Positions 17,674-58,378 of a stretch of 63,125 nt of DNA are shown piece by piece. The stretch comes from a virus: UHGV virus genome UHGV-1373161; one strand, given 5' to 3'. The position numbers and the translations under genes were made by a program. The number at the start of each line of letters is the position of its first letter. Within the stretch, counting starts at the first letter, position 1. The notes beneath the pieces are model-generated. The model made no database searches, had not been told where the DNA came from, and worked only from the letters and a program-made list of their open reading frames with translations.

Positions 17674-17690
17674 GTTGCCCTTTTAGCAAC
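17674..17690. promoter_or_regulatory. 17-bp palindrome site H (GTTGCCcttttAGCAAC)
   Basis: Member of the recurrent GTTGCY-N5-RGCAAC family; overlaps the RBS region of the GNAT gene. Confidence 0.55.
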
Positions 17691-17728
17691 ATGATAGACA
17701 AAAGGGCAACGCACGACCATTACCAAGT

Positions 17729-17908
17729 TTACGGATTCTGCGCCGCGAGTAACGATTTTACCTGTTTTTCCAGCCGATCGATGCGACGCAGGGCGGCGTC
17801 CAGCTCCTCCGCGCGGACGGCGCGCTTCGGCCTGGCCTTGTCTCCACGCGAGCCGTCGAGCACTTCAACCTTTTCTTTGACCTTTTGCCATTCGCTATCG
17901 CTAACCAT
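17729..17908 (-). CDS. Small coiled-coil protein, 59 aa, not in the ORF track
   Basis: ATG at 17908 overlaps the stop of the 582-aa gene (TAATG); MVSDSEWQKVKEKVEVLDGSRGDKARPKRAVRAEELDAALRRIDRLEKQVKSLLAAQNP. Confidence 0.3.
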   Translation of the reverse strand: MVSDSEWQKVKEKVEVLDGSRGDKARPKRAVRAEELDAALRRIDRLEKQVKSLLAAQNP

Positions 17909-19656
17909 TATGCGCCTCCCGCGATATCTTCAGGTGTGGCCGCCACGGTGACGGCGGTAATCCTCTGGTTGCCGCGCACTTCCAGCTCCAGGGTGGTGTA
18001 CATCCGTTTACCGGGCAGGCGTTCAATCTCGTTGATGCGGTAGATGGTGGCGATCAGCTCACCATCGCCATAGACCGCGCAGGAGAATGACGGGTCGGCG
18101 TCCTCCAACGGCTCCAGCAGACTACCGGCGAAGGTCACAACACCCAGGGCGGCATCGGCCAGCGCGCCATCAGAGTTATCGGCATTCATCCGGACGCGGT
18201 TGCGCGCCCGAACGGCGGCATTCTTCGCCAGGCGCTCCTTGATCTGCTCGTCGCTCGATGCGTCTTCCCCTTCCACCAGGATAGCGCCCCAGTTGTAGTA
18301 GCTGGGTGAAACGAACCGCTTAGAGCGCCAGTACATTTCCGCGTATGGCTCGGATATCGCGTCCCACTCGAAAATCTCCCGGCCGCCGCGCAGCAGGTAC
18401 AGCACGCCGGTGCCAATTTCGAAGAACATGGCGCTGGCGTAGTCGGCGTATCGCTCCAGAAAAGGCTGGGATCCGGAAAGGTCGATGCTGATAATGCCGC
18501 GCCGCTCGATGTTGTCGCTATCCAGGTACGCGTAAGACGCCAGGTAGCGCCCGGCGAACTGCCCGGCGATAAAGCTCTCTGGCTGCATCTGCCGCCACTG
18601 ATCGCGGGTCATCAGGCTGGCGGTAGCGACGGCCGCGCCGTTCTGCGAGATCGTGACCAGCCCCTGCGGCGACGCGTAGGCAACGGAATAGCCCAGGTCA
18701 ACGATGCTCGATGCCGCGATGCATGGATAATTCACCCGGATACGGTCCATCGTCATGTTTTCCGGGGCGGTGCCCTGGGCGACATACGGCGATCCCTTCG
18801 TCATGATGGCAACGGACGTGCCAAAAACGCCCAGGCCGACGATCTCATAGTCGCAGGTCAGAATGTACTTTTCCGGCCACGCATGCGGGCGGTACGGCTC
18901 ACTGAAATATAGCTTCTTCCCGACGAAAGCGGCCATCATGCCGTTTGGCAAGGAAGTAAGTCCCTGCAGGCCATCCGGCGGCGCGTTGTAGTCTGTGCTG
19001 GGCAGCACTTCGTTGATCGGGTTATCCGCCACCACATCCACGAAATCGGCGGCCGTCGCCTCCCGCTCTTTGATGAAATAGAGGGTGGTGACGCCGCTGC
19101 TGCTGGTCTGTGACCGGTAGATGCGCATGCGGTTGATACCTCGCCCGGCCGGTGGCGACTGGAATCCAGACAGGCGAACATCGAGGCCAGGACTCCACAA
19201 AAGCCCGGCTGACAATGGCGCTGGCTCTGATTCCTCGTCCAGCTCCGTTATCCAGGTGTATGTCCAGATGACGGTGGAAGACAGCTCGTCGTCAACGTCG
19301 CCAGAAACGATAGCGGTTGTCAGCGCTACAGACGGGAACGGCACCGCCAGCGGCCAGGTCTTGCCGTTGGCGATAACCTTCGGCACGCCGTCGCCGGTTA
19401 CATAGAGACGATCTTCCGCCACCGGGCCAGGGGCGACACGAACCACGCCGGGCCAGCCCAACCACTCCCCATCGGTGGTTTTGTAGAAGGTTTTGCAGTC
19501 GAAACCGAACCGGTTGACGTAGCGCGCCCTGCGGATCGGCAGTAGCGAGCCGTCTTCCAGTTTCGTGTTCTGCGACACCTGCGCATAGTTGTTGTCCAGC
19601 AACCGGGGGATAACGCGCGGTATCTCCCCGGAAAACGCCGCTATGCGAACGCTCAT
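17908..19656 (-). CDS. Tail structural protein, 582 aa (nozzle/tubular-type candidate)
   Basis: Large protein immediately after the RBP genes in the virion module; no recognisable enzymatic motifs. Confidence 0.45.
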   Translation of the reverse strand: MSVRIAAFSGEIPRVIPRLLDNNYAQVSQNTKLEDGSLLPIRRARYVNRFGFDCKTFYKTTDGEWLGWPGVVRVAPGPVAEDRLYVTGDGVPKVIANGKTWPLAVPFPSVALTTAIVSGDVDDELSSTVIWTYTWITELDEESEPAPLSAGLLWSPGLDVRLSGFQSPPAGRGINRMRIYRSQTSSSGVTTLYFIKEREATAADFVDVVADNPINEVLPSTDYNAPPDGLQGLTSLPNGMMAAFVGKKLYFSEPYRPHAWPEKYILTCDYEIVGLGVFGTSVAIMTKGSPYVAQGTAPENMTMDRIRVNYPCIAASSIVDLGYSVAYASPQGLVTISQNGAAVATASLMTRDQWRQMQPESFIAGQFAGRYLASYAYLDSDNIERRGIISIDLSGSQPFLERYADYASAMFFEIGTGVLYLLRGGREIFEWDAISEPYAEMYWRSKRFVSPSYYNWGAILVEGEDASSDEQIKERLAKNAAVRARNRVRMNADNSDGALADAALGVVTFAGSLLEPLEDADPSFSCAVYGDGELIATIYRINEIERLPGKRMYTTLELEVRGNQRITAVTVAATPEDIAGGA

Positions 19657-20018
19657 GAGGAAATCGCCGCGTCACTGATAACAGCAGTCACCACTGAGGG
19701 ACTTGGTGTACCGTTCTGCAGTTCGTCCATCGCGCCAGCGGTTAAACGCAGCTCACAGAGGTCGCCAGCGCTGAATTCCCGACGCTGGGAGCCTTCAGCT
19801 CCTCGCTGTACGGTGATGCTATCCCCTTCCCTGGCGGTTGCGCGCAGGTACTCGATGTTGCCGGAATCATCCTCCAGCGCCAGCGGAAACCAGTCGCCGG
19901 TATTGGTCAGCACCGGGAACTTGACGCCGTGGCCGACTTTCACGCGGATCACCGTCTCGGAGTCGCTGATTGATACAGCCAGGATGCTACGGGCATTGTT
20001 GGTGAGTTTCAGGCTCAT
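19653..20018 (-). CDS. Small virion/tail protein, 121 aa
   Basis: Overlap-coupled between RBP3 and the 582-aa tail gene. Confidence 0.4.
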   Translation of the reverse strand: MSLKLTNNARSILAVSISDSETVIRVKVGHGVKFPVLTNTGDWFPLALEDDSGNIEYLRATAREGDSITVQRGAEGSQRREFSAGDLCELRLTAGAMDELQNGTPSPSVVTAVISDAAISS

Positions 20019-20020
20019 TG

Positions 20021-22900: not shown

Positions 22901-22916
22901 AGTCCCCGCTCCGCAT

Positions 22917-23368: not shown

Positions 23369-26300
23369 TTAGCTGAGGTACTGCTTATCCAGCAGCGTTA
23401 ATGCAAACTGATTACATACATGCTCGAATCCCTCGTACGCTACAGTAAGCGGATACGTGAGTTGCCGAAAATCAGCCAGATGAGGCTGTGCAATTGGGTC
23501 CACAGACCAGTCCTGTTCAAATCGCTCTAACAACAGATATGCTGCGTTTGTTGTCGATACCCTACCCAGACTCATCAGTCCCACCGCCATCGCCCCGGCC
23601 GTCTCGCAGAACCCGCGGCGGTCCTCTGCCAGCGTAAAATTGAGATAGTCAGGGGAGCCATTACCAAGTGTCGCCATCAGCAGATAGTTGCTGTTATCAA
23701 ACTCCGGTGTGATGTTCAGCAATTTACAGGCCCGCAGATACACGTAGTAGAAATGGCACTCGTAGGACAGCCAGCGATTCATGAATGGGTAAGCGCTAAA
23801 CGTGTCCATTACCGTCGGATGCGCGAAACTTGCGTAGGTGTTTGATTTAATCATCGAAACAATAGTATTGAACGCGGCCAGTTTTGCTCCTTGCGTATCC
23901 AGCCCGGCATATATCCCTAACGCCAGCATCCGCATTCCCTCGGCATTTGAGTTACCGTTTCCCCGATAATTTTGAGAGCCATCCAGAGGCGTTCCGTTTG
24001 ACGCATTTACGCGAGTAACAAGTGCGTCACAAATGCTGGCAATGAATATTTTCAAATCATCCATGACAGCGGTATTGCCTGTTTTCTCAGCGTAACGATA
24101 ATACATTTCGACAGGAGCAAACATCATTCTACCAACGAATTGTAAAACAATCGATCCGCTCAGGTATGCCGTTCCGGCATTGCTGTAGCTGCCGATAATG
24201 TCGGTAATGAATTTTTTGAAATGTACATACTGCGCGTCAAAATCTCCGCCGCTTTTCAGACATTGCAGCAATCCGTAAACCTGCGGGTAGCGGTAGCCAC
24301 TCTTGTCGCTCGCCGATATCTGGCCGTTTTCCGGGTTGGAATACAGGTCAAATATGCCATCAGCCAGCCGTTCCATGAGTCCGTATACCCTCTGTTTCAG
24401 CACGTATGCTGGCACCCCACGGTAAGCCATTCCCACCGGGCGGTTAAATACCCGGTTGCTCAGCTCTCTCTCAGTTGTTCCCAGCGAGTACGGGAAAATC
24501 CAGTGACCAGCGCTCCACGTCCAGTTTTCAGGAACAACATAATTAACGAGACTATCGTCTGTGAGTGATGCGAATGACCAGCCACTGCGCATGCGAATTT
24601 CCTCGCCGGATCGCACTATTGTTCCTAAATTTGGGCGAATAGCACCCCACGTATTTAATCTTGAAGCATCATCACGCCGCTGGTCAGCAATCGAGAACTC
24701 ATTGATCAACGACCAGTTTGTTTCTGTTGCAGCAACATTACGCACTATAGATGCACTGCTGTATATGGATGCGTCCATATTCGTACCGAATGCGAATCCG
24801 AGGTCAAGACGAACCCCGTACAGGCTGTTTGCCGGGATTTTCTGTGTTGCCTGGAACATGTTGAAAACCTGCATAACGCCTGTACTGAACAGGCGGTATC
24901 TCGTAACGCTCCGTACTGCGCCAGCCGGCACGCTGCCCTGCCCGGCATGATACGCAATTTGCTCAACCTCTGCAAAAACAGGCCCGGAATTAACTAGCCG
25001 CAGGCTGAATGATGAATAACCGGTGTTTTCAACCGCCACGCCGTCAGTGATACCAGAGATACGCTTGAGCGTCTGTATTCTCAGTTCAGAATCACCGCGC
25101 GACACTGACCAGGGGCTACCGTTGAGCGCACTAAATTTCCAGGTAAATTCACCAACAGTTATCGAGTAGCGATTTCCCGCCGCGTCATAATTTAGTTTTG
25201 GATAGCCAGATTTAGCAGAATTGAATCCGTAATTGCCGTACACCTCCAGGCGAAATTGTTTCTTCTCTCCGGCTGACATATCTCCGTAGAAAATTATTTC
25301 GCCGGTATTGAAGGAGCCGTCAGTGTAACGCTCCAGGTCGGCGTTTTTCCTCAGATTTGCGTCCATGACTCCGGCAAACTGGCAAGGATAGACATTCCCC
25401 GCGCTGTCTCTCAGTCTCAGAGCTGAATGCTCGGAGACCTCTCCGGGGCTGAACTGTATCTTGATGCTGAGAGGGTGAGTCTCAAAACTATACGCAGAAG
25501 GGTTATAGATATCGGCGTTGTATGTGGATAATTGTGTAGACGGCGTGACGTCTGCGCCTGATTTGCTGGTCAGGACATTAATCACTACATTAACTGTCGG
25601 ATCGATATGGACCGTGATATCGTCGCTCACAGCGCCGTATAACAACACTGGGGATGAAGTGTAGCTATTAGAGCGGTACGTCAGTTTTATCGACGAATAA
25701 GTTGCCAGATAATAAGCGAGTACCCCGTCCAGCGTTAATTCATAACCTGCTGCGATAATGGCCGCATTCGGTATCCCCAGATAAATCGCACCGGAGGTAT
25801 GCCCCACACAAGTCGCTACTGTCGCTGATTCCTGCGCGCCCTGGTTGATAGCAGTAAACCGGCCGTCAAGACTGAAAACAGTACGACTGCCATCAAATGC
25901 CGAGTCTGGTGTCATCGTAGTTTGCAGCGCTAATCGGGTAACGCTCGCCCCAATTAACCGCATAGAAATATCACTGGCATTGCCGCCAAGGGAAATGGTT
26001 TTATACGGAGAGGTTAATACGCCAGAACTGATTGTTTCATCAGGGTACAGGCGCTGCCTAAAAATATCACCACCGGGTTGTGTGGCGTAAATCTCTCCGG
26101 AATCTCCGCCCAGTGCTATAGAGGCGTGATCAACAATAACCAGCGAATCCTGTGCAATACTAACAGCAGTATCCCCGGATGACGAAACAGACGTGGCGAC
26201 AGTCATTGTGCTGGAAAGGGCCACCACGGATTCACTCAGACGCGACTTAATGCTATCCACGGACAACTGCGACGGCATCTTCCGCCCAGTGGCCTCCAGC

Positions 26301-33723: not shown

Positions 33724-33802
33724 AATGTGCCCTCAAGAACGTGCGGTGTGTCGGGATCGCCGCACGTCTTGCGCAGCATTACGTTTCGATTATCGAATGA
33801 CT

Positions 33803-33821
33803 GTTGCTGAAATGCAAACAC
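33803..33821. promoter_or_regulatory. Palindrome-family variant GTTGCTgaaatGCAAACAC upstream of the coat gene
   Basis: Shares 17 nt (GAAATGCAAACACTCA) with site 40586-40603 and the left arm with the GTTGCT-N5-AGCAAC family. Confidence 0.45.
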
Positions 33822-37740: not shown

Positions 37741-37771
37741 GATTGCCCTCTGTTGCGTTTATGTCTTATGC

Positions 37772-37788
37772 GTTGCCAGTATAGCAAC
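37772..37788. promoter_or_regulatory. 17-bp palindrome site A (GTTGCCagtatAGCAACac)
   Basis: In the 53-nt gap between the terL stop and the 143-aa gene. Confidence 0.55.
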
Positions 37789-39511: not shown

Positions 39512-39730
39512 ATGGGCGGATTTGAACTGAAACTCTGGCGCAATGGCCTGGGCTGGTCCCAGGAACGGGCAGCTGAAGAGCTGGGAGTGAGCAGACGGAC
39601 TTACCTTACGTGGGAACAGAAAGGCACCTCCCGCGTGGTCGAACTTGCCACGCAGGCGCTGTCCATCAAAGCCGAATGGCCTGAAACCGCCAAAAAGCTG
39701 AATAGGCTGTCCACTCTCGCGAAACACTAA
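39512..39730 (+). CDS. XRE-family HTH regulator, 72 aa, antisense between terS and terL
   Basis: GAGGA SD 7 nt upstream; LGWSQERAAEELGVSRRTYLTWEQKG is a canonical HTH_3; stop overlaps the terS stop convergently. Confidence 0.5.
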   Translation: MGGFELKLWRNGLGWSQERAAEELGVSRRTYLTWEQKGTSRVVELATQALSIKAEWPETAKKLNRLSTLAKH

Positions 39731-40509
39731 GTATCCTCTTTGTCCTGCTTAACTGGGGTGATAAGCGCGCCGGGCAGCTGCTGTAGCAGAACTTGCAATG
39801 GGTTCTGCTCATCCCCTTTAAGTGTCAGCTTATCATTGAACATGCCCAGGTGCCTCGCAATCTGGTCGAGCGCTGCTTTCTGGTCATGCATTTTTACTTC
39901 CAGCCCCTCTTTCGACTGCTTCACGCCTGCGAATAGAGCCAGCGCTGCCGGTGAAAGGTTGCGGGTGTCCTGAAAGTAGGTGCTCAGATGGCCGTCGCCG
40001 TGACACTCCGGGCATTTGGCGTGCGGAGAGAGTGAGGAGTCGAATCCATAACCACCTTCATCGGTGATATCGCGTGGCGGCCTATCTTCCTGTTGTGCTG
40101 CCATAGCCTCGCGCGCTTTGGCGTTCTCGAACTCGGCCTCATCCTTCCACTGGAATGCATGGTCAATGCCATAGCAGTGACGGCAGCACGTCCGGCGCAG
40201 CTGTGTCAGCTCGTTCGGGTTGGCGGTCGCTATCATCCAGTACCGCTGTAACACCATGTCCTGGGTGATTTTGGTGCGCTCTGAGCGCTTCTCCATGCCA
40301 GCCAGGATCGCAGCGTAGACCAGAGGCTTCACCTTACCATTGCTGACCCACATGTAGGCTTTCGTTCGGGCAACGGTGGCGCTATAACCGGCCGCAAGTG
40401 CAGCCCGTTCCGGTGACAAATCGATTAGATATTCGTCCACAAAGCGTTTATCGCGTGCTGATAGCTTTGTGGCCTTTGCTGTAGGCGTCTTGGTTTGTTT
40501 CCTGTTCAT
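39727..40509 (-). CDS. Terminase small subunit (Terminase_2/P27-like)
   Basis: KRFVDEYLIDLSPERAALAAGYS motif; first gene of the late operon. Confidence 0.7.
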   Translation of the reverse strand: MNRKQTKTPTAKATKLSARDKRFVDEYLIDLSPERAALAAGYSATVARTKAYMWVSNGKVKPLVYAAILAGMEKRSERTKITQDMVLQRYWMIATANPNELTQLRRTCCRHCYGIDHAFQWKDEAEFENAKAREAMAAQQEDRPPRDITDEGGYGFDSSLSPHAKCPECHGDGHLSTYFQDTRNLSPAALALFAGVKQSKEGLEVKMHDQKAALDQIARHLGMFNDKLTLKGDEQNPLQVLLQQLPGALITPVKQDKEDT

Positions 40510-40589
40510 AACGTGTCCTTGCGGGTTGACATATCCGCATGCATCGGGAATCGCTCCCGGATCGCTTTGTTGCGATTGTAGAAACAGGG

Positions 40590-40607
40590 GTTACGAAATG
40601 CAAACAC
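40590..40607. promoter_or_regulatory. Palindrome-family variant GTTACgaaatGCAAACAC in the terS / plus-island divergent region
   Basis: 17-nt identity with 33806-33824; overlaps the start codon of 40598 and lies about 80 nt upstream of terS. Confidence 0.4.
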
Positions 40608-40864
40608 TCAAGCCGATAGATGGGCGGTGGCTTTACTGGCAGCAGGTAGACCTGGCAAACGGTGTTTTCCGTGTGCAGGGCGCTGAATGGCGTACGGAAT
40701 GTCCAGACTTAACCGAATGGGTTGACTGGACCGGTTCGGCGCAGCTGGAAGAAGAGATCGGCCTGGCTCTCGATATGCTTGGCGCGTACATGCTTGGTAA
40801 ATGGGTTGGCTTCGGACGGACGATAGACGGCATCTGTCATGGTATAGCCTGGATGGTGTCCTGA
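40598..40864 (+). CDS. Hypothetical protein, 88 aa (first gene of the plus-strand island)
   Basis: ATG with AGGGGT SD; Trp-rich, no known motif. Confidence 0.4.
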   Translation: MQTLKPIDGRWLYWQQVDLANGVFRVQGAEWRTECPDLTEWVDWTGSAQLEEEIGLALDMLGAYMLGKWVGFGRTIDGICHGIAWMVS

Positions 40865-41008
40865 TGCGTGACCACTATTGTCCGTGGATAGGCAACACTT
40901 GCTAAGCGCTTTGTTGCCATATCGCACCATCTGATTGCATATTTACAATACTTTTCTGGCGTTACCGCTAACGCTATATTATGATTACCTTGTACCGCGC
41001 AATATGCG

Positions 41009-41019
41009 CCAATAACAAC
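41009..41019 (+). promoter_or_regulatory. Leader motif CCAATAACAAC, 12 nt upstream of the 41032 start
   Basis: Same 11-mer precedes the starts at 57587 and 58137. Confidence 0.4.
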
Positions 41020-41031
41020 GAGGTAACACCC

Positions 41032-41355
41032 ATGACTACCGAATGCACCGCTCTGCGTACTGATGGCTTTATAACCAATATCAAATCACGCAATCCATTC
41101 GATGTTATCCGCGCCGATGTAGTGCTGGAACGGCTGCATAAGCAGGCTTACCAGGGCTGTGGCCTGTACTATGAGATTTATGAGGCCCGGCTGTTAGGTA
41201 TGGCCATCGCCCATCTTGAATTGCTGCCTCAGAAAGACCGTCAGACGTTCATCGCTGCAGCTGAAAAGAAAGGTTTCACGCTGAGCATGGAAGAGCTGGA
41301 ACGCGCTGACGAAGCGCGTGCAGATGTTATGAGAGAAATTCGAGCTGATTACTGA
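41032..41355 (+). CDS. Hypothetical protein, 107 aa
   Basis: ATG with GAGG SD. Confidence 0.45.
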   Translation: MTTECTALRTDGFITNIKSRNPFDVIRADVVLERLHKQAYQGCGLYYEIYEARLLGMAIAHLELLPQKDRQTFIAAAEKKGFTLSMEELERADEARADVMREIRADY

Positions 41356-41367
41356 GCAGGTGCCAAC

Positions 41368-41532
41368 ATGCCAAAATTACCAAGCGTTTTCCCGATTATT
41401 CATGACCACGGCACTGATGCCAAAGGCGCGGAGCGTCACTGCCTGTCACTGGTGAAAGGCGGCTGGTCTGCAAAACTTGTGCGCCCTGCCGGTCGCGGCT
41501 GGCGCGTCGTTATCTCCGGATATCGCGGATAA
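41368..41532 (+). CDS. Small basic protein, 54 aa, not in the ORF track
   Basis: MPKLPSVFPIIHDHGTDAKGAERHCLSLVKGGWSAKLVRPAGRGWRVVISGYRG; weak SD. Confidence 0.25.
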   Translation: MPKLPSVFPIIHDHGTDAKGAERHCLSLVKGGWSAKLVRPAGRGWRVVISGYRG

Positions 41533-41566
41533 AACCTCTTACAGCCCGCAGGGCTAAGGATCATAT

Positions 41567-41833
41567 GTGAACAGCACTACACCGCGCACCCAGCGCAGAC
41601 GCCAGCCACCGCTGGAAGTAAATCAGAGCCTGATTGAAAAGCTGAATGGATTTGTCGAAAGCGCCCGCAAGGGCGAGCAGGATACCGATTACGAATACGC
41701 GATCCGCATGTGGCGCTTCGCTATCCAGATCGTGGAGCAGTTGAGCCACCGGGAAGCTGAGAAGCGTGTGCCGTATTACCTGAACCGCATCGACTTCTGC
41801 GAGAAAATGGTGAAGCGGGGTAAGCGGTCATGA
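41567..41833 (+). CDS. Hypothetical protein, 88 aa
   Basis: GTG start 7 nt after AAGGA. Confidence 0.4.
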   Translation: MNSTTPRTQRRRQPPLEVNQSLIEKLNGFVESARKGEQDTDYEYAIRMWRFAIQIVEQLSHREAEKRVPYYLNRIDFCEKMVKRGKRS

Positions 41834-42072
41834 TTACGATCCCCGTCACCGGCTACGCAATCGTCCTGGCGTGCTCAATTAACGCTGGCACGCCGGATTG
41901 CATCGAGCAGCTGGCTACCGGCTATGTGTGGGCCAATGCCCAGCGCTGCCAGGAAGAGCTGGACCACGCGAAAATACCTGGCGCGCAGTGCCAGAGCCTT
42001 TCCGGCATCACCGTTTCTGATGAAGGCACCGGCCCGGCACTGGCACGCATGATCGACGTGGAGGGTATGTGA
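41830..42072 (+). CDS. Small exported/lipoprotein-like protein, 80 aa
   Basis: N-term hydrophobic ITIPVTGYAIVLAC (lipobox-like VLAC); ATGA coupling. Confidence 0.35.
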   Translation: MITIPVTGYAIVLACSINAGTPDCIEQLATGYVWANAQRCQEELDHAKIPGAQCQSLSGITVSDEGTGPALARMIDVEGM

Positions 42073-42290
42073 CTAAACCAAATCCCGGCGCGCTGCGAGC
42101 GCGGAGCTACACCAAACGTCGCCAGGATCAGGGGGACGTTAAAACTACCGTGTGGCTGAAAGGAAAGACAAACGCTGTCATTCAGGAGCTGGCGAAGCAG
42201 GAGGGAGTAACACGCGATGAGCTGATAGAGCGCATCTGTAACGGCTACATCGAGTTTAAAACCAGACCAGTGACCCAACCCCACGAATAA
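42069..42290 (+). CDS. Ribbon-helix-helix-like small protein, 73 aa
   Basis: KTTVWLKGKTNAVIQELAKQEGVTRDELIERI has strand-helix-helix architecture; GTG start in GTGA overlap. Confidence 0.35.
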   Translation: MTKPNPGALRARSYTKRRQDQGDVKTTVWLKGKTNAVIQELAKQEGVTRDELIERICNGYIEFKTRPVTQPHE

Positions 42291-43956: not shown

Positions 43957-44426
43957 ATCACCCCCGACAAGTTCAGCTCAGGGATCAGCGCCTCCTTGCG
44001 ACCGGCGGCCACAACGCCGTAGCCAGTCTCGAAGAAGCTCAATCGGCCTTTCAACGGCTGGAAAGGCAGCGGCTTCGAGCCGGAAAGCTGGAAGCCTACC
44101 GGGCCAAAGAACCAGGGCGACGCGCTTTCGCGTGTGGTGCCGGTGATGTGCGTATAGCCGACGATGCCGCCGCGCTCGATCCCTTTGTGCCCAGGCCAGT
44201 TTTGCGGCACGCTGAAATCGTTCCAGCTGGGGAAATTTACATCGTAGAGCTTGTTTTTCAGCAGAATGTCGATTACCGCGCGGTGGTCATCCATCGACGG
44301 CTTTGCTGCGCTGGCGTGGATCAGAACCGCGCCGCGATACTTCGTGTCCCAGCTCCGGTTCTCAATGTCCTTAAAGCCGTTGACGATGAGCCACGCCCAG
44401 GGCTGGCGGATGGAGATTGCTTTCAT
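43953..44426 (-). CDS. ASCH-domain protein
   Basis: MKAISIRQPWAWLIVNGFKDIENRSW is the ASCH signature. Confidence 0.6.
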   Translation of the reverse strand: MKAISIRQPWAWLIVNGFKDIENRSWDTKYRGAVLIHASAAKPSMDDHRAVIDILLKNKLYDVNFPSWNDFSVPQNWPGHKGIERGGIVGYTHITGTTRESASPWFFGPVGFQLSGSKPLPFQPLKGRLSFFETGYGVVAAGRKEALIPELNLSGVI

Positions 44427-44782
44427 AGGCGCACCCCCTTCATGAACGCAGCTCTGAAACGATCCTGGTCAACCTTGACCGTGTTGCTAAGTGGATCGTC
44501 GTACAGGCAGGCCAGCAGCGCGTCGTATTTTTCCTTCTGCTGACGCATAGGATCCGGCCCCATGCAAGGCTCAGAAGCAGCCTTTCCACCGAGCATGGCC
44601 CCACAACTCATGCACTGCTCACCACCGAAATACGTGCGGTGCGAACGGTGTGCTTTCGGAATGGATTTCTCTCGAAGTGAGTTTTCCTCCATCCAAAGGC
44701 GAATTTCATACAGCCTAAGCTCCAGCCCATATATTTTCTCACGCATTTTCCGGCGCTGGTTTCGACCAAATCGTTTGCTCAT
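44423..44782 (-). CDS. Hypothetical Cys-containing protein, 119 aa
   Basis: CMSCGAM...CMGPDP; palindrome site B about 60 nt upstream. Confidence 0.4.
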   Translation of the reverse strand: MSKRFGRNQRRKMREKIYGLELRLYEIRLWMEENSLREKSIPKAHRSHRTYFGGEQCMSCGAMLGGKAASEPCMGPDPMRQQKEKYDALLACLYDDPLSNTVKVDQDRFRAAFMKGVRL

Positions 44783-44828
44783 GCTTTTGCCTTAGCCGCT
44801 CTACGGCGGCGATCCATTGCTGTTTTGA

Positions 44829-46421
44829 TTATTCAGTTGCTGTAATAGCAACACTAGCCGCGTGAATAGCTGAAAGGATCCTGTTTCCTATCCAGCGCAT
44901 CACGGGTACTGCCATTGAATTTCCAATAGCCTTGTAGCGAGGCCCGTCAGCCGCCAGGCGGTGAGCTTCCTCCGCCGTCATGTTCGGGAAATGGTGGCGC
45001 AGGTACGCGTATTCCTCAGCGGTGATCTGCTTGCGCTTCTCTGTAGGGATTAGTGTGTGGTTATCCGGGAATCCCTGAAGGCGCTCGCACTCCACTGGCG
45101 TTAGGCGACGAACTGCCATCTGATGGGAAACAGCTATCCCTTGTGCCGTGTCGAGTGTGTGAGTGATGTTCTCCTGGACGCCCCAGCCATTACTGCTTGT
45201 GTTAGCTGTGCGGATGCCGTAGGCAATGTGTGGAAACTGGTCACTCATTCCTCTGCCGTGGTCAGATTTCAGCGTCGGGAAGACTTCTTCGCTCGGAGCC
45301 GCTCCAGCGGCTCTAGTGCAGTTTCCAGGCTGGAATGCAACCGCCAGCGTCTCATGGTCTGCGCCAGATTTTGCGCGTAGAGCACTCACTCCAGGTGCAA
45401 AAGAAGCGTGTCCGTTACTGCTGAACACAATCGAAACTATCTGCTGCTCACTAATCCCTTTGGCACAATGCAATGTATTTGCCATATCACCTGTCAACTG
45501 AATGCCAGAACCCCGCGTATCTCCCCTGGTGTCAGTAAAGCAACTGGCGACAATCGGCGCTTCGTGGTTGCAGGTGAGCGTAGGCGCGGAATCGTCCGTT
45601 TTAATCTCGGCTCCGCCCTGTCCGTGCGCCATTGCAATCAGGTGTCCTGCTTGTCCCCGGTTATCGTCTGCGCTACGGACTCCAATGCAGTTTGAAGTAA
45701 GGGGGGAAGCTGCCTTCCCCGCGCTTCTGCTCGGCGCAATATCCCGGCGCACGCCATCGGACTCAAAAAGTATTTTGGTGGGATCAATATCGGTTCGAGC
45801 ACTTGCGACAACAAACACACGGCGGCGTCGTTGGGCCACTCCGAAATATTGGGCATCAAGGATCCGCCACGCGATTGTTCTTTTGGGGCCGCGCACATAA
45901 CCAGCGTTCTCCCAGCGCTTCCCTGGTGGTTGTAGCTCACAGTCTTCGCCGGCAAGCAGTCCAAGGAAGGCTCCGAAAGCGTTATCTTTTGAGCTGAGGA
46001 CTCCGGGAACGTTTTCCCAGACGATAATAGCTGGTGGAATTCCTGCTGCTGCTCTGCGGTCGTCGATGGCATCCGCTAATTCTCCGTATGAAATAGTGAG
46101 TTGACCGCGAGGGTCTGAAAGGCCAGCGCGAGCACCGGCCACAGAAAACGCCTGGCATGGCGTGCCGCCGACAAGGATATCCGGCGCGTCCATTTCCCCT
46201 GCGCGCATTTTGGCGGCGAGTTTGGTCATGTCGCCCAGGTTGGGCACTTCAGGCCAGTGGTGCGCCAGAACGGCAGACGGAAAGTCAGGGCCGTTTTTGT
46301 ATTTGTGCTCAGGATCGAACTGAGAGAACCATGCCGGGCTAAAGCCCAGCACTTCCCACGCCACGCTGGCCGCTTCGATGCCGCTGCACACAGAGCCATA
46401 ACTTATCGTGTTGCTTGTCAC
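44829..46421 (-). CDS. DNA cytosine-5 methyltransferase (Dcm-like)
   Basis: GTPCQAFSVAG (motif IV), IVWENV (motif VI), QRRRRVFVV (motif VIII); GTG start at 46421 overlapping the upstream TGA stop, GGAGGG SD. Confidence 0.75.
   Translation of the reverse strand: MTSNTISYGSVCSGIEAASVAWEVLGFSPAWFSQFDPEHKYKNGPDFPSAVLAHHWPEVPNLGDMTKLAAKMRAGEMDAPDILVGGTPCQAFSVAGARAGLSDPRGQLTISYGELADAIDDRRAAAGIPPAIIVWENVPGVLSSKDNAFGAFLGLLAGEDCELQPPGKRWENAGYVRGPKRTIAWRILDAQYFGVAQRRRRVFVVASARTDIDPTKILFESDGVRRDIAPSRSAGKAASPLTSNCIGVRSADDNRGQAGHLIAMAHGQGGAEIKTDDSAPTLTCNHEAPIVASCFTDTRGDTRGSGIQLTGDMANTLHCAKGISEQQIVSIVFSSNGHASFAPGVSALRAKSGADHETLAVAFQPGNCTRAAGAAPSEEVFPTLKSDHGRGMSDQFPHIAYGIRTANTSSNGWGVQENITHTLDTAQGIAVSHQMAVRRLTPVECERLQGFPDNHTLIPTEKRKQITAEEYAYLRHHFPNMTAEEAHRLAADGPRYKAIGNSMAVPVMRWIGNRILSAIHAASVAITATE
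44836..44852. promoter_or_regulatory. 17-bp palindrome site B (GTTGCTgtaatAGCAACac), perfect arms
   Basis: In the 46-nt gap between the dcm stop and the next gene. Confidence 0.6.
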
Positions 46422-46990
46422 TCTTCTGTGCCCTCCGTTGCCGAAACAGCAACACTCTTCCCGCACTTAGGGCAGAACTTCACGCCGTTCTCTTCCGGGC
46501 CGTCTTCCATGAACTGGAATTGATAGCCGCAATCGCTGTGCCAGTTGTTTATGTCTTCTTCGCAGTGCCAAGTGCAGCTATCCGGAATTACCGGAGAGTT
46601 GCCAGGATGGACCGGACACGGCCAGCGCAGTGAACCATCGCCGCTGGGGCAGGTGCAAACAGGAGCTACCGGCGCTGGCTGTGCGTTAGCCGCCGAGCGG
46701 AGCCGGAATGGCAAGTCGAACCACACACCTGCACCTGTCCTGTCTTTAGTGGTAAGCAGGTCTTCAATTGCTGATGCCGCCGTATGAAGCAGGTCTGCGC
46801 TGACTACCGGCGCTGGCGGATAATTTGCCAGCTCGGGCTGAAGCGCCACCGGATAGCTGCCCACTGAGGCCACCAGCTGCCGCAGCGCTTCCAGATAAAA
46901 CTGCTCTTTAAGCGATAGCTCGCCAGCAGATTCCAGGGCCGCGATACGCTCTTTCACTGCTTCTGGTGTGATTTTAATTGTCATCGCCAA
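46418..46990 (-). CDS. Hypothetical protein with C-terminal zinc-ribbon (CPxCG), 190 aa
   Basis: C-term FCPKCGKSV and CTCPSGDG cysteine clusters. Confidence 0.45.
   Translation of the reverse strand: MAMTIKITPEAVKERIAALESAGELSLKEQFYLEALRQLVASVGSYPVALQPELANYPPAPVVSADLLHTAASAIEDLLTTKDRTGAGVWFDLPFRLRSAANAQPAPVAPVCTCPSGDGSLRWPCPVHPGNSPVIPDSCTWHCEEDINNWHSDCGYQFQFMEDGPEENGVKFCPKCGKSVAVSATEGTEE
46437..46453. promoter_or_regulatory. 17-bp palindrome site C (GTTGCCgaaacAGCAACac)
   Basis: Lies within the last codons of the 190-aa gene, 16-32 nt upstream of the dcm start. Confidence 0.55.
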
Positions 46991-47840: not shown

Positions 47841-48514
47841 GCCTCCCGTTTGAGGGGGTTGTTGTCGTTGGCCCAATCAATACCCATGACGGTGCCGGGC
47901 AGCAGGGCGATATCATTACGGGGGTTCTCGTTGCCCCAGTGGTCCCATCCTGGCGCGTCGCCGCGACTGAAAAGCTCGATGCGCGGCACGTCGCCATAAA
48001 GCAACTCCAGTCGGTGGCGAACCTCCCAGGGTTTTGCGCTGTGCTCACCCAGGCAGCTGTAAACCACCTGTTTGATGTTCCGCGCCTGGCGCTCCAGACC
48101 GGCACCGCGAACCGCGAAAAGCACGTCCTCAGTGTTGGCGCGCGTGTAATTGCCGCCGTTCATGCGGGATTGCTTATTCAGCATGTCCAGCAGGTCGTAG
48201 AAGTCCTGGATCTGGCCTTCGCGCAGCGCCTTATTGAAATGCTCGTCCGCCAGCTCGTTGAACTTCACCCAGGTAAAGCCCTTGATGGTGCGCACGTCGA
48301 AGCCCCAGGCCTTCGCCAGCTGGTGGGCCTCCTCGATGTGCGTGCTGGTGTACCACATAGCCAGTACGGCATCGTCGGCGGCCAGCTCCCACACCGGCAG
48401 GCGCTTAATGTCCTCGATCTTCATTGTGTCGTAGTGGTCGCTGGCTGCGCCGTTGCTGGCCTTGTTCTGGTAGTTCCACGGCGGATCGGCATAAATCAGG
48501 GAGTAGCGCTTCAT
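47837..48514 (-). CDS. DNA N6-adenine methyltransferase, MT-A70 family
   Basis: IYADPPWNY (DPPW catalytic motif). Confidence 0.8.
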   Translation of the reverse strand: MKRYSLIYADPPWNYQNKASNGAASDHYDTMKIEDIKRLPVWELAADDAVLAMWYTSTHIEEAHQLAKAWGFDVRTIKGFTWVKFNELADEHFNKALREGQIQDFYDLLDMLNKQSRMNGGNYTRANTEDVLFAVRGAGLERQARNIKQVVYSCLGEHSAKPWEVRHRLELLYGDVPRIELFSRGDAPGWDHWGNENPRNDIALLPGTVMGIDWANDNNPLKREA

Positions 48515-48849
48515 TCAGCTTCCCCCTCTTCCGGGCGGCGCTCTTCCTCGATGTACACCAGCGAGTGGTCGTAAAGCTCTTCCAGGGGGAAGCCGCGCAG
48601 GGTCTTTGTGTCCGGCATGCCATACGGGCGCTTCAGCTTGTAGCCGTGCTTCTTGATGACGTCGCCCACCAGCACCGGGCCGCCCTGCTCCACCAGCCAC
48701 TGGTGAATGTCGCGGGCCTGCTGGCTCAGATCCAGCGGGTAGGTACCCACGGCAACGGCCACGACGTGTTTGCCGACCTGAATGACCTTCACACCGCCAG
48801 GCTCATGATTCAGGGCTGGCTTGAACGTCGAAAGGTAGTTTGGTTGCAT
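48511..48849 (-). CDS. Hypothetical protein, ~112 aa
   Basis: Second in-frame ATG has AGGGA SD; palindrome site D about 50 nt upstream. Confidence 0.4.
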   Translation of the reverse strand: MQPNYLSTFKPALNHEPGGVKVIQVGKHVVAVAVGTYPLDLSQQARDIHQWLVEQGGPVLVGDVIKKHGYKLKRPYGMPDTKTLRGFPLEELYDHSLVYIEEERRPEEGEAE

Positions 48850-48900
48850 GAACATTCCCTATCGCCTTACGGCGAATCATATTGCTAATCTGCACCGCGC

Positions 48901-48917
48901 GTTGCTAAAACAGCAAC
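48901..48917. promoter_or_regulatory. 17-bp palindrome site D (GTTGCTaaaacAGCAACac), perfect arms
   Basis: In the 70-nt gap between the HNH gene stop and the next gene. Confidence 0.6.
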
Positions 48918-48926: not shown

Positions 48927-49463
48927 CTAAAAATTTTGCCAGAGTTTGCCGTTAGCGATTTTGCTGATAACGGCTTCGGAAACATTCAGCTCGCGCGCCA
49001 GTCGGGAATTTGTCCCGTCTTTCCCGTGCTTTCTATTCGCGATTTCGTTTCTGATATAAGCAACGTCCTTCGCAGACAGCTTTACGTTAGGGTGAGTTTC
49101 GCCGGGCATTCCAAGGCTAACCCCTCTCCCCTTCGCGATCATGTCCGCAACATTATCGGCCTGTGACCCTAAAAACAGGTGGTCGATGTTGATGCACTTA
49201 GGGTTATCGCAGGTATGGCAAACCTTCACCCCATCGGGTATTTCCCCGCGCTCAAGCGTCCAGGTTAGACGATGAGCCAGCCAGCTGCGGCACTTGTAAG
49301 AAACGGTGCCGTAGCCGTCTTTATTAGTCCGCCGATTCCACTCAATGCAGCCATTTGAAGCAATAGAGCTGTACTTCTTCAGCCTTTCGCGAATATTTAC
49401 GAAACTTCTTTGTCCGCGCTTCCTAACAGGGCCAACAAATTCAGTAGTGCTTATTTCACCCAT
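48927..49463 (-). CDS. HNH endonuclease (HNH_3/AP2-type) with C-terminal HTH
   Basis: GYGTVSY...AHRLTW...CHTCDNPKCINIDHL. Confidence 0.7.
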   Translation of the reverse strand: MGEISTTEFVGPVRKRGQRSFVNIRERLKKYSSIASNGCIEWNRRTNKDGYGTVSYKCRSWLAHRLTWTLERGEIPDGVKVCHTCDNPKCINIDHLFLGSQADNVADMIAKGRGVSLGMPGETHPNVKLSAKDVAYIRNEIANRKHGKDGTNSRLARELNVSEAVISKIANGKLWQNF

Positions 49464-51037: not shown

Positions 51038-51046
51038 GGTTCCGCC

Positions 51047-51187
51047 TTAGCCTTTACGGCTGCATTTTTTCACGATGGCGCGGCGAATTTCCGCATCGCG
51101 CTCGTCAGAACGCCCACTGAAGTAGCCGATAGCGAAAAATACGGCCGCCACAGTCATGCACAGGGCAAATATGCTATCTCCGCTCAT
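51047..51187 (-). CDS. Small single-TM protein, 46 aa, downstream of cro, not in the ORF track
   Basis: ATG overlaps the cro stop (ATGA); MSGDSIFALCMTVAAVFFAIGYFSGRSDERDAEIRRAIVKKCSRKG. Confidence 0.25.
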   Translation of the reverse strand: MSGDSIFALCMTVAAVFFAIGYFSGRSDERDAEIRRAIVKKCSRKG

Positions 51188-51468
51188 TTCTTCACCTCAT
51201 TGACTTCTGGTGTACCAGGCGAAAGAAGAGCCACAGCCTCAGCAAGTAATTTCCTTGCCTTAGTCACGGCATCATCTTTCTCCCCGTAAGTTTCAAGAAC
51301 CAGAAGACGCAGCGAATCCGTCAGTATCTTCTGCCCGCTTTCAATCCGGCATCCCGTACCTTTCGATACGTGGATGGCCTCCCAGAAATCACGCTGAGAA
51401 ATGCCCTTCTCTTTGCGGTACTGCCGCAGCGTGATCGGGGTGATGTCGTTAATCGATTTAAAAGTCAT
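51184..51468 (-). CDS. Cro-like lytic regulator (XRE HTH), 94 aa
   Basis: Start MTFKSINDITPITLRQYRKEKGISQRDFWEAIHVSKGTGCRIESGQ (HTH_3); divergent from the CI-like gene. Confidence 0.6.
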   Translation of the reverse strand: MTFKSINDITPITLRQYRKEKGISQRDFWEAIHVSKGTGCRIESGQKILTDSLRLLVLETYGEKDDAVTKARKLLAEAVALLSPGTPEVNEVKK

Positions 51469-51481: not shown

Positions 51482-51530
51482 GTTGTCCTCATAGCAACTA
51501 TGTTGGCAAAAAATAATGCCAAAAGCAAAC
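51482..51530. promoter_or_regulatory. Immunity-region operator cluster: GTTGtcctcatAGCAAC, GTTGGC-N11-GCCAAA, GCAAAC, AGCAACGCAAC half-sites
   Basis: 129-nt divergent cI/cro intergenic region carrying degenerate versions of the genome-wide palindrome. Confidence 0.5.
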
Positions 51531-51597
51531 GCATGATTGCAATTTAGCAACGCAACGGGTAGGAACGTGATCCAAAGTGAAGTACCGGGAGGCGCGT

Positions 51598-52194
51598 ATG
51601 CCTGTGAACAAAAAATATTTTGACGACCTGATGAAAGACCGCCGGATCTCCCTTCGGGCCATCGCCAGGGAAATGAACTGCTCACCGTCACAGCTCTCCA
51701 GAACGTTCGGCGGGTACCGGCGCATGCAGCTGGCAGAAGCCGCAACCATCGCCAGAATGCTCGGCGTACCGGTGGTTGAGGTCATGGTGAATGCCGGTAT
51801 CGAGGAAGTGCGGGGTGAGCGGAAGTACGCCAAAGTGATCGGCTTCCTGAAAGGGGATTTGACCGTCTCCCCTGTCCCTGATGACGTTCGGGAACGGGTG
51901 CCACTTCCGATAGCAGACCTGCCGCCGGATACCGTCGCCATCCAGGCCCGCACAGCGAATACGCCGTTCTCCTTTCTGGATGGATGGGTGTTCTTTGTCG
52001 GCCCAAGGGTGGATGCCAGCGACGAGATCGGCAGCTACTGCGTGGCGCACGTCGAGGGCGGAGACAAGATAATCGGCACGCTTTCGAAGGGCTATCAGCG
52101 CGGGACATACAACGTCACCGGCGCGGCGGGCATCGCAAGGCAGAGTATGAAAGTCGATTGGGTTCGTAGGATTTATTTCACGCAACACGCCTAA
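51598..52194 (+). CDS. CI-like repressor (N-terminal XRE HTH, C-terminal oligomerisation domain, no S24 motif)
   Basis: GGGAGG SD; ISLRAIAREMNCSPSQLSRTFGG HTH; no GDSM/Ser-Lys autoprotease signature. Confidence 0.55.
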   Translation: MPVNKKYFDDLMKDRRISLRAIAREMNCSPSQLSRTFGGYRRMQLAEAATIARMLGVPVVEVMVNAGIEEVRGERKYAKVIGFLKGDLTVSPVPDDVRERVPLPIADLPPDTVAIQARTANTPFSFLDGWVFFVGPRVDASDEIGSYCVAHVEGGDKIIGTLSKGYQRGTYNVTGAAGIARQSMKVDWVRRIYFTQHA

Positions 52195-52217
52195 AAGTGT
52201 TGCCGTTCTCAAATATA

Positions 52218-52235
52218 TTGTTCTAATATAGCAAC
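52218..52235. promoter_or_regulatory. Palindrome-family half-site ATTGTTctaatatAGCAACac downstream of cI
   Basis: Right arm AGCAACAC perfect, left arm degenerate; upstream of the 52295 gene. Confidence 0.35.
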
Positions 52236-53589: not shown

Positions 53590-53598
53590 GGAAAGGAT

Positions 53599-54821: not shown

Positions 54822-54829
54822 GGTCTATT

Positions 54830-56433: not shown

Positions 56434-56568
56434 CCGGGAGGTACGCATGCGGGAAGAAGAGATTAAGCGTCTCGATCCCCTTAACCGCATAGGTTGACGG
56501 GGCCAGGCATCCGTTACCACCTGAAACATTATCATCAACCACCGCCCCCAGGGGCTAAAGAGAAAGGC

Positions 56569-57546: not shown

Positions 57547-57559
57547 TGCCGGATACCGG

Positions 57560-57586
57560 CCAATAACAACCCACAAAGGGGGAAAC
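57560..57586 (+). promoter_or_regulatory. Leader motif CCAATAACAACCCACAAAGGGGGAAAC immediately upstream of ATG 57587
   Basis: Near-identical 25-mer at 58109-58136 and an 11-mer at 41009-41019. Confidence 0.45.
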
Positions 57587-58093
57587 ATGCAAAAGATTCA
57601 ACCGATGGAGCCGCAGCGCGATAGCTATGGCTATTGGTGCCACCCGGATATGCCGGAAATTGAAACCAATGAGCAGTTTGATAACTGGATCGCCGCTCAG
57701 GGGTTGCAGTATGCGATTCACTGTCTTGATGGTGATGACGGGATCGGTGCGGAAGATGCCAATCAGCGCTACGACGCTGGCGATATAGATATTCTTGTGT
57801 GGCAACCATCTAAGCCCCAGGGTGAAGGCTGGTTTATCGTGTCAATTTACGACACGGAAGACGGCCCTATATGTCTGTGGGTTCGTCACCCGACCGAAGA
57901 GCAGCTGCGCGAAGCGGAAGAGCGCAAAAAGCTGCAGGCGCTGAAAGAGGACTTCCTGGCGAAGCACCGCGCCTGTGAGAAGGCCGCCTATGAGTATTTC
58001 GCAGCCTGCCCGGAAGGCGATGAGCGTGTTTTTGCCAGTGAGGTCTATCAGCGCGTTCGTCTTGCCACGTCCCGGAGCGGGAAAGGCGCGTAA
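57587..58093 (+). CDS. Hypothetical acidic protein, 168 aa
   Basis: ORF track. Confidence 0.45.
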   Translation: MQKIQPMEPQRDSYGYWCHPDMPEIETNEQFDNWIAAQGLQYAIHCLDGDDGIGAEDANQRYDAGDIDILVWQPSKPQGEGWFIVSIYDTEDGPICLWVRHPTEEQLREAEERKKLQALKEDFLAKHRACEKAAYEYFAACPEGDERVFASEVYQRVRLATSRSGKGA

Positions 58094-58108
58094 CCGGCAA
58101 TTACTGGC

Positions 58109-58136
58109 TCAATAACAACCCATAAGGGGAATATCG
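58109..58136 (+). promoter_or_regulatory. Leader motif TCAATAACAACCCATAAGGGGAATATC immediately upstream of GTG 58137
   Basis: Shared with 57560-57586. Confidence 0.45.
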
Positions 58137-58301
58137 TGGAAATCACCAAAAAATTTGTTTCGTGGGAAGAGTGGTACGCCGAGCTGCGAAAGGTAGCCAC
58201 ACAAAAAGGCGGCAGCGCTGCCGACGCCGAAGCCTGGCGCGAGGATTATGACGCCGGTCGCACGCCGGAACAGGCCTGGTTTGAAGCCTGGGGCGAATAA
58301 G
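58137..58301 (+). CDS. Small protein, 54 aa, not in the ORF track
   Basis: GTG start after the AAGGGGA motif; MEITKKFVSWEEWYAELRK... Confidence 0.3.
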
Positions 58302-58361
58302 TAGGATGGTGGGGAAGTTCACGCTTCCCCCTTTTCAGACTGTTTCGCCCTTGTTAATACC

Positions 58362-58378
58362 GTTGCTGAAACAGCAAC
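58362..58378. promoter_or_regulatory. 17-bp palindrome site F (GTTGCTgaaacAGCAACag), perfect arms
   Basis: Ends 14 nt upstream of the AlpA/Xis-like start; followed directly by the AGGAG SD. Confidence 0.6.

Follow-up and report, generated by a model that had tools for sequence, protein, structure and literature searches.

Dispersed 17-bp palindromes in a Lastavirus-type Klebsiella phage genome as candidate operators of a lambda-type repressor

The virus genome UHGV-1373161, analyzed here over its whole length of 63,125 nt and referred to as the window, carries six copies of the 17-bp palindrome GTTGCY-N5-RGCAAC upstream of genes in different modules, and the question raised by these copies is whether they are read by a regulator on double-stranded DNA, act as hairpins in the transcript, or are repeats kept by descent and recombination. 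Over most of its length the window is ~94% identical to the Klebsiella phages SopranoGao, LASTA/SJM3 and vB_KpnP_ZX1 (ZX1) of the genus Lastavirus, with Serratia phage Parlo and Erwinia phage PEp14 as more distant kin; judged by sequence, it is a Lastavirus-type Klebsiella phage or prophage, i.e., a Bcep22-like podovirus with a giant virion protein. The late block on the minus strand runs from terS (39727..40509) through terL, the portal, coat and tail genes and the gene for a 4019-aa protein to the lysis cassette; an early operon on the same strand extends from cro (51184..51468) down to 42326; and the plus strand carries a short block (40598..42290) and an operon leading from a cI-like gene (51598..52194) to the integrase gene (60877..62142). 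On the curated gene map 94% of the window is coding and 6% non-coding, and no tRNAs were found in it.

All six perfect sites reported in the initial annotation, starting at 17674, 37772, 44836, 46437, 48901 and 58362, are exact matches at correct coordinates, and they are not a product of chance: 0.01 matches are expected, none of 100 shuffles yielded six, and with one mismatch allowed the pattern is found 12 times where 0.75 matches are expected. An unbiased count over all 5-bp arms at spacings of 1–11 places GTTGC-N7-GCAAC first among the palindromes of the window, as well as of SopranoGao and LASTA. Matches with at most two mismatches number 30, with nine in intergenic DNA and two in the final codons of an open reading frame (ORF). 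An equal density in coding or unrelated DNA, which had been named beforehand as the observation that would speak against a specific signal, was not found; 14 of the 29 17-mers of the form G[TA]T-N11-AAC in the window are intergenic, in a genome with 6% non-coding DNA, and the exact pattern does not occur among 80 distant prophage loci (L015–L094). Distant Bcep22-like prophages, scanned over terL ± 10 kb, show no exact-palindrome enrichment comparable with that of the window, and a scan of genome contigs with terL returned distant relatives only and no more Enterobacterales copies; as far as these sequences extend, the sharp palindrome is a trait of the Lastavirus-PEp14-Parlo branch. In coordinate order the sites lie 11, 31, 53, 15, 45 and 14 nt from the start codon, within the range of 10–60 nt given earlier, and the dinucleotide AC said to follow them as a rule is present at four of the six rather than at nearly all.

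At least 17 17-mers make up a wider family, in which the six perfect copies match best. The degenerate copies described previously in the cI/cro region, after cI, before the coat gene and at terS are all genuine members of this family, and a further member, absent from the earlier list, lies upstream of the lysis cassette (2248–2264). Seven elements (lysis, coat, methylase/portal, terS, 44836, 48901 and PL, the promoter-like element after cI) share one layout when read on the strand of the downstream gene: (A/G)GT is followed by the 17-mer, with a -35-like TTGCnn or TTTGCA in its left arm, and then, after a 3-bp gap, by another segment of 17 nt. In this second segment a -10-like hexamer lies 18 nt from the -35, and the last bases are GMAAY, immediately before the expected start point. 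The register of 20 bp is fixed, in that 7 of the 11 sites laid out have GMAAY exactly 15 nt past the 17-mer, with the -10-like hexamer at positions 9–14 of this 15-nt interval, and the site at the HTH_17 gene fits the same register on the opposite strand (58342–58346, GAAAC). Good -10 hexamers are present in the terS (TACAAT), coat (GATAAT), lysis (TAAAAT) and PL (TAATAT) elements, and a sigma-70 scan independently picked up three of these elements, those of terS, coat and lysis. The GNAT-like and HTH_17 genes have the unit in mirrored form, consisting of a partner 17-mer, a -10 conserved across genera (TGnTA at the HTH_17 gene), the palindrome, a Shine-Dalgarno sequence and ATG; the flanking GT and the second 17-mer, which are co-oriented with transcription at the seven other sites, are reversed at these two. 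Since the -10 is directly upstream of the palindrome there, the transcript would start inside it. The 2248 and 58362 elements sit after intrinsic terminators, so that a promoter is required at both places.

Comparison among relatives indicates which part of the palindrome is under selection. SopranoGao, LASTA, ZX1 and an IMG/VR contig with a terL identity of 74% have the sites at orthologous positions. Within Lastavirus (six orthologous groups, 4–5 genomes) variation affects none of 60 outer-arm columns and 9 of 42 inner ones (Fisher p = 2e-4), and the invariance of the outer arms together with the variability of the central 5–7 bases implies that the arm sequence, rather than the centre, is what selection maintains. 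Such a pattern is the one to be expected of a dimeric DNA-binding protein, and is the opposite of what a protein reading an RNA loop would be predicted to leave. In Parlo the orthologous set is complete, with sites at cro, PL, the two early positions, terS, coat, GNAT, the HTH_17 gene and lysis; the right arm, RGCAAC in the window, is nearly always GCAAAC in Parlo (cro, PL, GNAT, HTH_17, the two early sites and lysis), and CGAAAC at its coat site.

Two candidates for such a protein are encoded at the immunity switch. A CI-like repressor gene (51598..52194, plus strand), whose 198-aa product combines an N-terminal helix-turn-helix (HTH; Pfam HTH_31/HTH_26) with a C-terminal β domain, diverges from a small Cro-like gene (51184..51468, minus strand; 94 aa) with an RsaL-like HTH (PF22495, E = 2e-11), the second candidate binder. 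Several ~17-bp putative operators lie between the two genes, with two or three in every relative examined, and in the window the 17-mers at 51482 and 51502 are 3 bp apart, which is the same gap as in the dispersed units. Relatives L181–L189 and L192–L197 combine two- or three-site cI/cro arrays with a 17-mer over the -35 after cI, and in all more than 15 relatives have the family at both places. The AlphaFold2 model of the CI-like protein (mean predicted local distance difference test score, pLDDT, of 90) has full-length lambda repressor (3bdn and 7jvt) and the lambda C-terminal domain (2ho0, 8gmu and 1kca) as its top matches in the PDB (E down to 1.6e-7); the protein thus models as a lambda-repressor fold. 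Lambda CI, with this fold, dimerises and binds adjacent operators cooperatively. The CI-like family is small (36 clusters), and those members that are found on long contigs are mostly on contigs of ~60–63 kb.

Arm sequence and repressor change together. At the site of the HTH_17 gene, 7 kb from cI, the right arm tracks the CI recognition helix over the phages compared: helices of the type ...SQLSRT or ...ALSRS pair with arms ending in CAAC or TAAC, and ...SQLSLT pairs with GCAAAC, the clear contrast being that between L186 (GTTTCGATTTCAGCAAC) and Parlo (GTTTCGATTTTGCAAAC). Between genera the HTH_17 protein retains 79–87% identity, compared with 41–45% for CI and 28–33% for Cro, and the helix types of a third HTH protein of the phage, of the XRE type (SRR versus S/T/V-LR), do not track the type of arm, as is evident from L102, which has SRR with Parlo-type arms, and from L099 and L108, which have LR with GTTGC arms. 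The near-invariance of the one and the untracked helix of the other make both poor candidates for the binder. RecA-stimulated self-cleavage of the lambda type calls for an Ala-Gly cleavage site and a catalytic Ser/Lys pair. Among 31 CI homologues A66 is nearly invariant and G67 invariant, and there is no invariant Ser or Lys in the C-terminal domain, which renders RecA-type self-cleavage doubtful; induction may instead rely on an antirepressor, as annotated in ZX1.

On balance we regard the palindromes as probable double-stranded-DNA operators of the CI-like repressor, and probably also of the Cro-like protein. The earlier proposal of a phage-wide regulon under one dimeric HTH regulator is favored to this extent, given the cI/cro membership of the family, the register, a conservation that lies in the arm sequence and not in base pairing, and the tracking of arm and helix, whereas the XRE protein is disfavored as its regulator. 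The CI-like and Cro-like proteins would each bind as a dimer, with one HTH per arm, and two placements can be envisaged. At seven places the 17-mer would cover the -35 and the spacer while a second segment of 17-mer length holds the -10, and at the GNAT and HTH_17 genes the palindrome would cover the expected start point directly past the conserved -10. In both placements occupancy would block initiation, and at sites within operons it may block elongation as well, such that one repressor could directly silence every transcription unit of the prophage, beyond PL and PR.

Several observations weigh against this assignment. The -10-like hexamers at 37772 (CATAAA), 44836 (CAAAAC) and 48901 (CAGATT) are weak and escaped the consensus scan, a promoter-like partner is absent at 46437, and the GMAAY past the -10 may be a feature of the promoter or start site instead of part of a second operator. 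The cI/cro and PL copies of the window fit the consensus worse than the dispersed copies, the PL copy being reduced to separated arms. LASTA has no cI gene, yet it keeps all six perfect sites, as might be expected if Cro or some other factor played a part or if cI had been lost recently. The split seen among CI helices recurs almost unchanged among Cro helices, and therefore the two proteins cannot be separated as the binder. Finally, RNA folding predicts hairpins at energies between -6.5 and -13.2 kcal/mol, with z under -3 for some of them, and the leaders of coat and lysis have in common a hairpin that a T-run turns into a terminator in Parlo and PEp14; both are taken up with the alternatives below.

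A wider proposal combines silencing with genome exchange, namely that in a Gram-negative podophage a single lambda-type repressor directly silences every transcription unit, through more than ten paired operators, and that these portable units of promoter and operator double as joints at which cassettes are swapped from phage to phage. The silenced set would include the terS, coat and lysis promoters and junctions within the early operon, and the cassettes would be methylases, the homing endonuclease and Eaa-like genes. This combination is put forward tentatively, as a possibility that we consider rather doubtful in its entirety.

The alternative that survives best is that another phage protein binds the sites, such as a late activator or a Q-like antiterminator with its element between -35 and -10, or else the antisense XRE protein (39512..39730) or the HTH_17 protein (58393..58599). 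In the terS, coat and lysis promoters the 17-mer occupies the stretch between -35 and -10, at the position of a Q/AlpA element (PMC9371919); all relatives retain the XRE and HTH_17 genes, and the presence of sites in LASTA despite its lack of cI is accommodated. That the leader hairpin is a terminator in Parlo and PEp14 hints at control of the late genes by antitermination. However, the 17-mer family also occupies the cI/cro and PL regions, which have to function with only the host polymerase, the PL operon yielded no Q-like protein, and the GNAT and HTH_17 gene sites are downstream of the -10; moreover, the arms differ between phages although the HTH_17 protein barely does, and in L102, L099 and L108 the type of XRE helix is at odds with the type of arm. 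We therefore judge such a binder, taken over all these candidates, to be unlikely. The Pseudomonas aeruginosa AlpA element was considered separately and rejected as unrelated: AlpA binds a single GGGACG through an HTH at residues about 128–142 (PMC9371919), which lies beyond the 68 aa of the HTH_17 protein. The leader itself is a 25-nt sequence (GCTGCGCAAGACGTGCGGCGATCCC) found in identical form after the lysis and coat promoters (2192–2216 and 33753–33777, minus strand), where it folds into a 6-bp hairpin with the loop AAGAC and, in Parlo and PEp14, is followed by the T-run. The XRE-type gene (39512–39730, plus strand; 72 aa; phrog_6962) is antisense between terS and terL; its product shows 46–75% identity over the relatives checked, and 52–75% in all except L109. 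Parlo is among these relatives, and there the ORF on the opposite strand was annotated instead.

The palindromes might also act in the transcript, as hairpins with a 6-bp stem and a 5-nt loop for translational control, stability or processing, which was the second function offered by the initial annotation. Besides the folding energies given above, it counts in favor of this reading that four palindromes abut a Shine-Dalgarno sequence, with 11–15 nt between their end and a start codon, that the pair between positions 6 and 12 on the sense strand is U-A or U·G in all six sites of the window, and that the phage encodes a CsrA-like protein. Any palindrome must fold as RNA, however, and the comparison of orthologous sites reveals no compensatory change, the arms being invariant and the loop free, while across genera the arm changes do not keep pairs 5–13 and 6–12. 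Orthologous family members such as GTTTCGATTTTGCAAAC and GTTTGCAAAATCGAAAC are unable to pair at positions 5–6, and the U·G bias has its counter-examples in SopranoGao 45240 and in the cro site, where the cro sense strand has C·A. The -10 directly upstream at the GNAT and HTH_17 genes (TATCAT and TGnTA, respectively) puts the start inside the palindrome, and the accessory segment stays on the same absolute side regardless of the direction of transcription. No Rfam family matched, and the loops are without GGA, the CsrA signature. The absence of compensatory change and the many family members that could not form the hairpin make an RNA role improbable.

RNA structures of another kind are present in the same genomes. 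Short GC-rich hairpins stand directly before UAAGG(A) ribosome sites in many gaps, with stems that vary in a compensatory manner (CGCC/GGCG versus CCCC/GGGG); examples are found in the window (44790–44815 and 48858–48880), in Parlo (20219–20249 and 20662–20693) and in L192 (2142–2175). Given this compensatory variation, real RNA structure in this group looks unlike the palindromes.

A third alternative requires no dedicated binder and explains the sites as shared promoter cores or boundary repeats that are kept by descent and as homologies for recombination. Upstream of the 44836-type and 48901-type sites the neighbors are not the same in the window, SopranoGao, LASTA and ZX1, the 44836-type flank having three versions in these four Lastavirus genomes, and homology ends no more than 3 nt from the palindrome. 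A 1.6-kb C5-methylase cassette (44829–46466) lies between two copies (44836 and 46437), and SopranoGao and ZX1, from which the cassette is absent, have one hybrid copy in its place; as the cassette is flanked by two copies of the palindrome, unrelated upstream genes share the C-terminal tail SVAxxATE. An HNH endonuclease gene (48927–49463; HNH_3, homing) abuts 48901. Recombination leaves unexplained, however, the dyad symmetry, the invariant arms with free centres, the register of the -10 and the genome-wide change of the arms with the repressor helix, and exchange at conserved regulatory repeats is in any case an expected by-product. The mosaic junctions are accordingly read as the outcome of recombination at regulatory repeats whose conservation has other grounds, and we attach little probability to an explanation by descent and recombination alone.

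The remaining candidates can be dismissed briefly. A sigma-70 -10 in the palindrome loop is good at 37772 (TGCTATACT), but the hexamers at orthologous sites differ (TATTAC, CATTTC and TATTCC), and this reading was dropped for want of conservation; plus-strand antisense promoters with the upstream TTGC as -35 are better read as the second 17-mer of a minus-strand element. Sites for sigma-54, for an extracytoplasmic function (ECF) sigma factor, for lambda CII (TTGC-N6-TTGC) or for MerR-type regulators are mismatched in spacing or sequence, and no such factor is encoded; intrinsic terminators are contradicted by the lack of a T-run after any of the six sites on either strand and by a terminator scan that called none; the likeness to integron attC sites (GTT...AAC) is superficial, and no integron integrase is present; and a restriction or methylation target would leave the placement at promoters unexplained. 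The initial annotation had also suggested that a ParB-like domain of the giant virion protein might recognise the sites, but no ParB domain was detected in the 4019-aa protein of the window (Pfam, E ≤ 1e-3), and the ParB-family protein with a cognate palindrome that characterizes ParB/parS systems is therefore not seen in it. This protein (2431–14490, minus strand) has Pfam matches to SLT transglycosylase, ResIII/helicase, methyltransferase, ART-PolyVal ADP-ribosyltransferase and LPD39 domains; the giant protein of the relative L198 has a ddrB-ParB domain.

The proposed operators of a CI-like and probably a Cro-like protein resemble OR1-3 and OL1-3 of lambda in being partly symmetric sites of 17 bp, several per control region, situated between divergent cI-like and cro-like genes where they overlap -35 and -10, with adjacent sites about two helical turns apart; the predicted two-domain fold of the repressor is a further likeness. 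Unlike in lambda, the best copies lie outside the immunity region, at no fewer than eight extra loci of late, lysis, accessory and intra-operon position, neighboring sites are separated by a 3-bp gap (20 bp centre to centre), and the C-terminal domain of the repressor showed no invariant Ser/Lys pair. The stoperators of L5 and cluster A offer a closer parallel with respect to distribution, since one immunity repressor recognises more than 20 genome-wide sites at promoters and in short operon gaps, which have been proposed to stop initiation and elongation and which co-evolve with the repressor (PMC9283540; PMC6550527). In the window, likewise, the early and late operons carry sites outside the immunity region, at 2248, 17674, 33803, 37772, 40589, 44836, 46437, 48901 and 58362. 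L5 sites are 13-bp asymmetric sequences that are bound in one orientation only by a monomer with two DNA-binding domains (PMC9283540), whereas the sites described here are dyad-symmetric 17-mers and the repressor is lambda-CI-like.

Dispersed operators are also found in two systems with unrelated repressor families and hosts. The C1 repressor of P1 has many operators, dispersed upstream of separate operons and asymmetric, and the conserved inverted repeats (CIRs) of phiC31 are intergenic 17-bp sites for one repressor, confined to the early region. The promoter-stem-loop cassettes (PeSLs) of T4-type phages, which join early promoters to stem-loops, involve no repressor and flank variable genes at module junctions; the repeated regulatory sequences of the window flank variable genes in the same manner, although their junction role looks secondary. 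With the boxB element of lambda nut the palindromes have in common a short stem and a 5-nt loop, of which the one-strand form GAAAC resembles GAAAA; boxB, however, occurs twice, in one orientation to transcription and adjoining boxA, whereas the minus-strand operon would have GUUUC in place of GAAAC in its transcripts, and covariation is absent. The palindrome appears to be undescribed for this phage group, and its principle to be already known from L5 stoperators, P1 C1 and phiC31 CIRs. The only published motif search on LASTA/SJM3 gave a different PHIRE consensus, probably a coding repeat (PMC10052179).

Lastaviruses and their Bcep22-like kin are being isolated as possible agents of phage therapy against Klebsiella, Serratia, Erwinia and Burkholderia, and their regulation is unstudied. 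If the sites do function as proposed, they would provide a ready map of the promoters and of the immunity specificity of each phage, which would help in predicting homo- and hetero-immunity and in engineering obligately lytic derivatives. The few phages that directly silence their whole genome would further gain a lambda-CI-type example, and the positions of module junctions in this group would be accounted for.

The individual elements are arranged as follows. Between cI and cro (51482..51551) there are three 17-mers, GTTGTCCTCATAGCAAC (51482–98), GTTGGCAAAAAATAATG (51502–18) and GATTGCAATTTAGCAAC (51535–51). The putative PL-like promoter after cI (52199..52235, plus strand) consists of GTTGCCGTTCTCAAATA, tat and TGTTCTAATATAGCAAC, with the -35 TTGCCG, an 18-nt spacer and the -10 TAATAT followed by A-GCAAC, and in relatives the 17-mer of the promoter at this position is intact. 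The predicted terS promoter (40569..40605, minus strand; GTTTGCATTTCGTAACC, cct and GTTTCTACAATCGCAAC; TTTGCA-18-TACAAT) has a core, GTTTCTACAATCGCAAC (40569–40585), that is identical in Parlo (23374–23392) and at the genome end of PEp14, i.e., across three genera, despite terL proteins that are only ~60% identical. The putative coat-gene promoter (33783..33819, minus strand) is composed of GTTTGCATTTCAGCAAC, agt and CATTCGATAATCGAAAC, with TTTGCA-18-GATAAT, and has orthologues in Parlo and PEp14. For the lysis cassette the corresponding element (2228..2264, minus strand; GTTGTGGTTATGGCAAC, gct and CGGTCTAAAATCGAAAC) follows the intrinsic terminator mentioned above, and its Parlo orthologue reads GTTGTGATAATGCAAAC, gct and CATTCTATAATCAGAAC.

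The perfect site at 17674..17690, which on the minus-strand sense reads GTTGCTAAAAGGGCAAC, lies 11 nt before the ATG (17662) of the GNAT-like gene (17237..17662) and has orthologues in SopranoGao, LASTA, ZX1, Parlo and two IMG/VR contigs. Its partner (17691..17710, minus strand) comprises the 17-mer GTTGCCCTTTTGTCTAT and the 3-bp gap, and contains the -10-like TATCAT (17691–17696) that abuts the palindrome and is conserved as TATCAT or TATGAT in Parlo, L011 and L013. Between terL and a 143-aa gene that precedes the portal gene is the unit of the site at 37772–37788 (37752..37788, minus strand), made up of GTTGCTATACTGGCAAC, gca and the 17-mer TAAGACATAAACGCAAC and promoter-like in the form TTGCTA-18-CATAAA-C-GCAAC. 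This architecture is kept in L095, L096, L099, L105, L108 and PEp14 (terL identity 59–99%), and the form GTGTTGC-N7-GGCAAC-N15-(G/A)NAAC followed by Shine-Dalgarno sequence and ATG is kept downstream of terL at terL identities of 59–74% and in PEp14. The unit of the site at 58362–58378 (58342..58378, plus strand) joins the partner GTTTCGCCCTTGTTAAT, acc and the palindrome, with an extended -10-like TGnTAATAC; AGGAG and the ATG (58393) of the 68-aa HTH_17 gene follow, and the intrinsic terminator is just upstream of the unit.

The claim that the remaining three perfect sites fill every gap of the early operon is borne out for 48901, which lies between genes; 44836 and 46437 fall inside the ends of the upstream ORFs. 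The 48901–48917 unit (48881..48917, minus strand), in which the palindrome is followed by gcg and CGGTGCAGATTAGCAAT, is placed between the HNH endonuclease gene (48927..49463) and gene 48511..48855, with an MT-A70 methylase gene next, and has orthologues in L192 and L193. In the 44836–44852 unit (44816..44852, minus strand) the palindrome is followed by tga and ATAATCAAAACAGCAAT, 53 nt before gene 44423..44782, and the site is inside the last 8 codons of the C5-methylase ORF, where it encodes the terminal ..SVAITATE. The site at 46437..46453 encodes the terminal ..SVAVSATEGTEE in the last codons of ORF 46418..46990, and is followed by GGAGGG and, 15 nt away, by the GTG start (46421) of the C5 cytosine methylase. 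The apparent gap of 146 nt after cro has no site and is taken up by a previously unlisted 46-aa ORF (51046–51186, minus strand; MSGDSIFALCMTVAAVFFAIGYFSG...) between cro and a gene for a RecA-dependent nuclease, the product of which is probably a small membrane peptide. A family-like 17-mer, GATTGCAAATTTAGAAC (267–283, plus strand), lies close to the left edge of the window, past the lysis cassette and adjoining a strong terminator.

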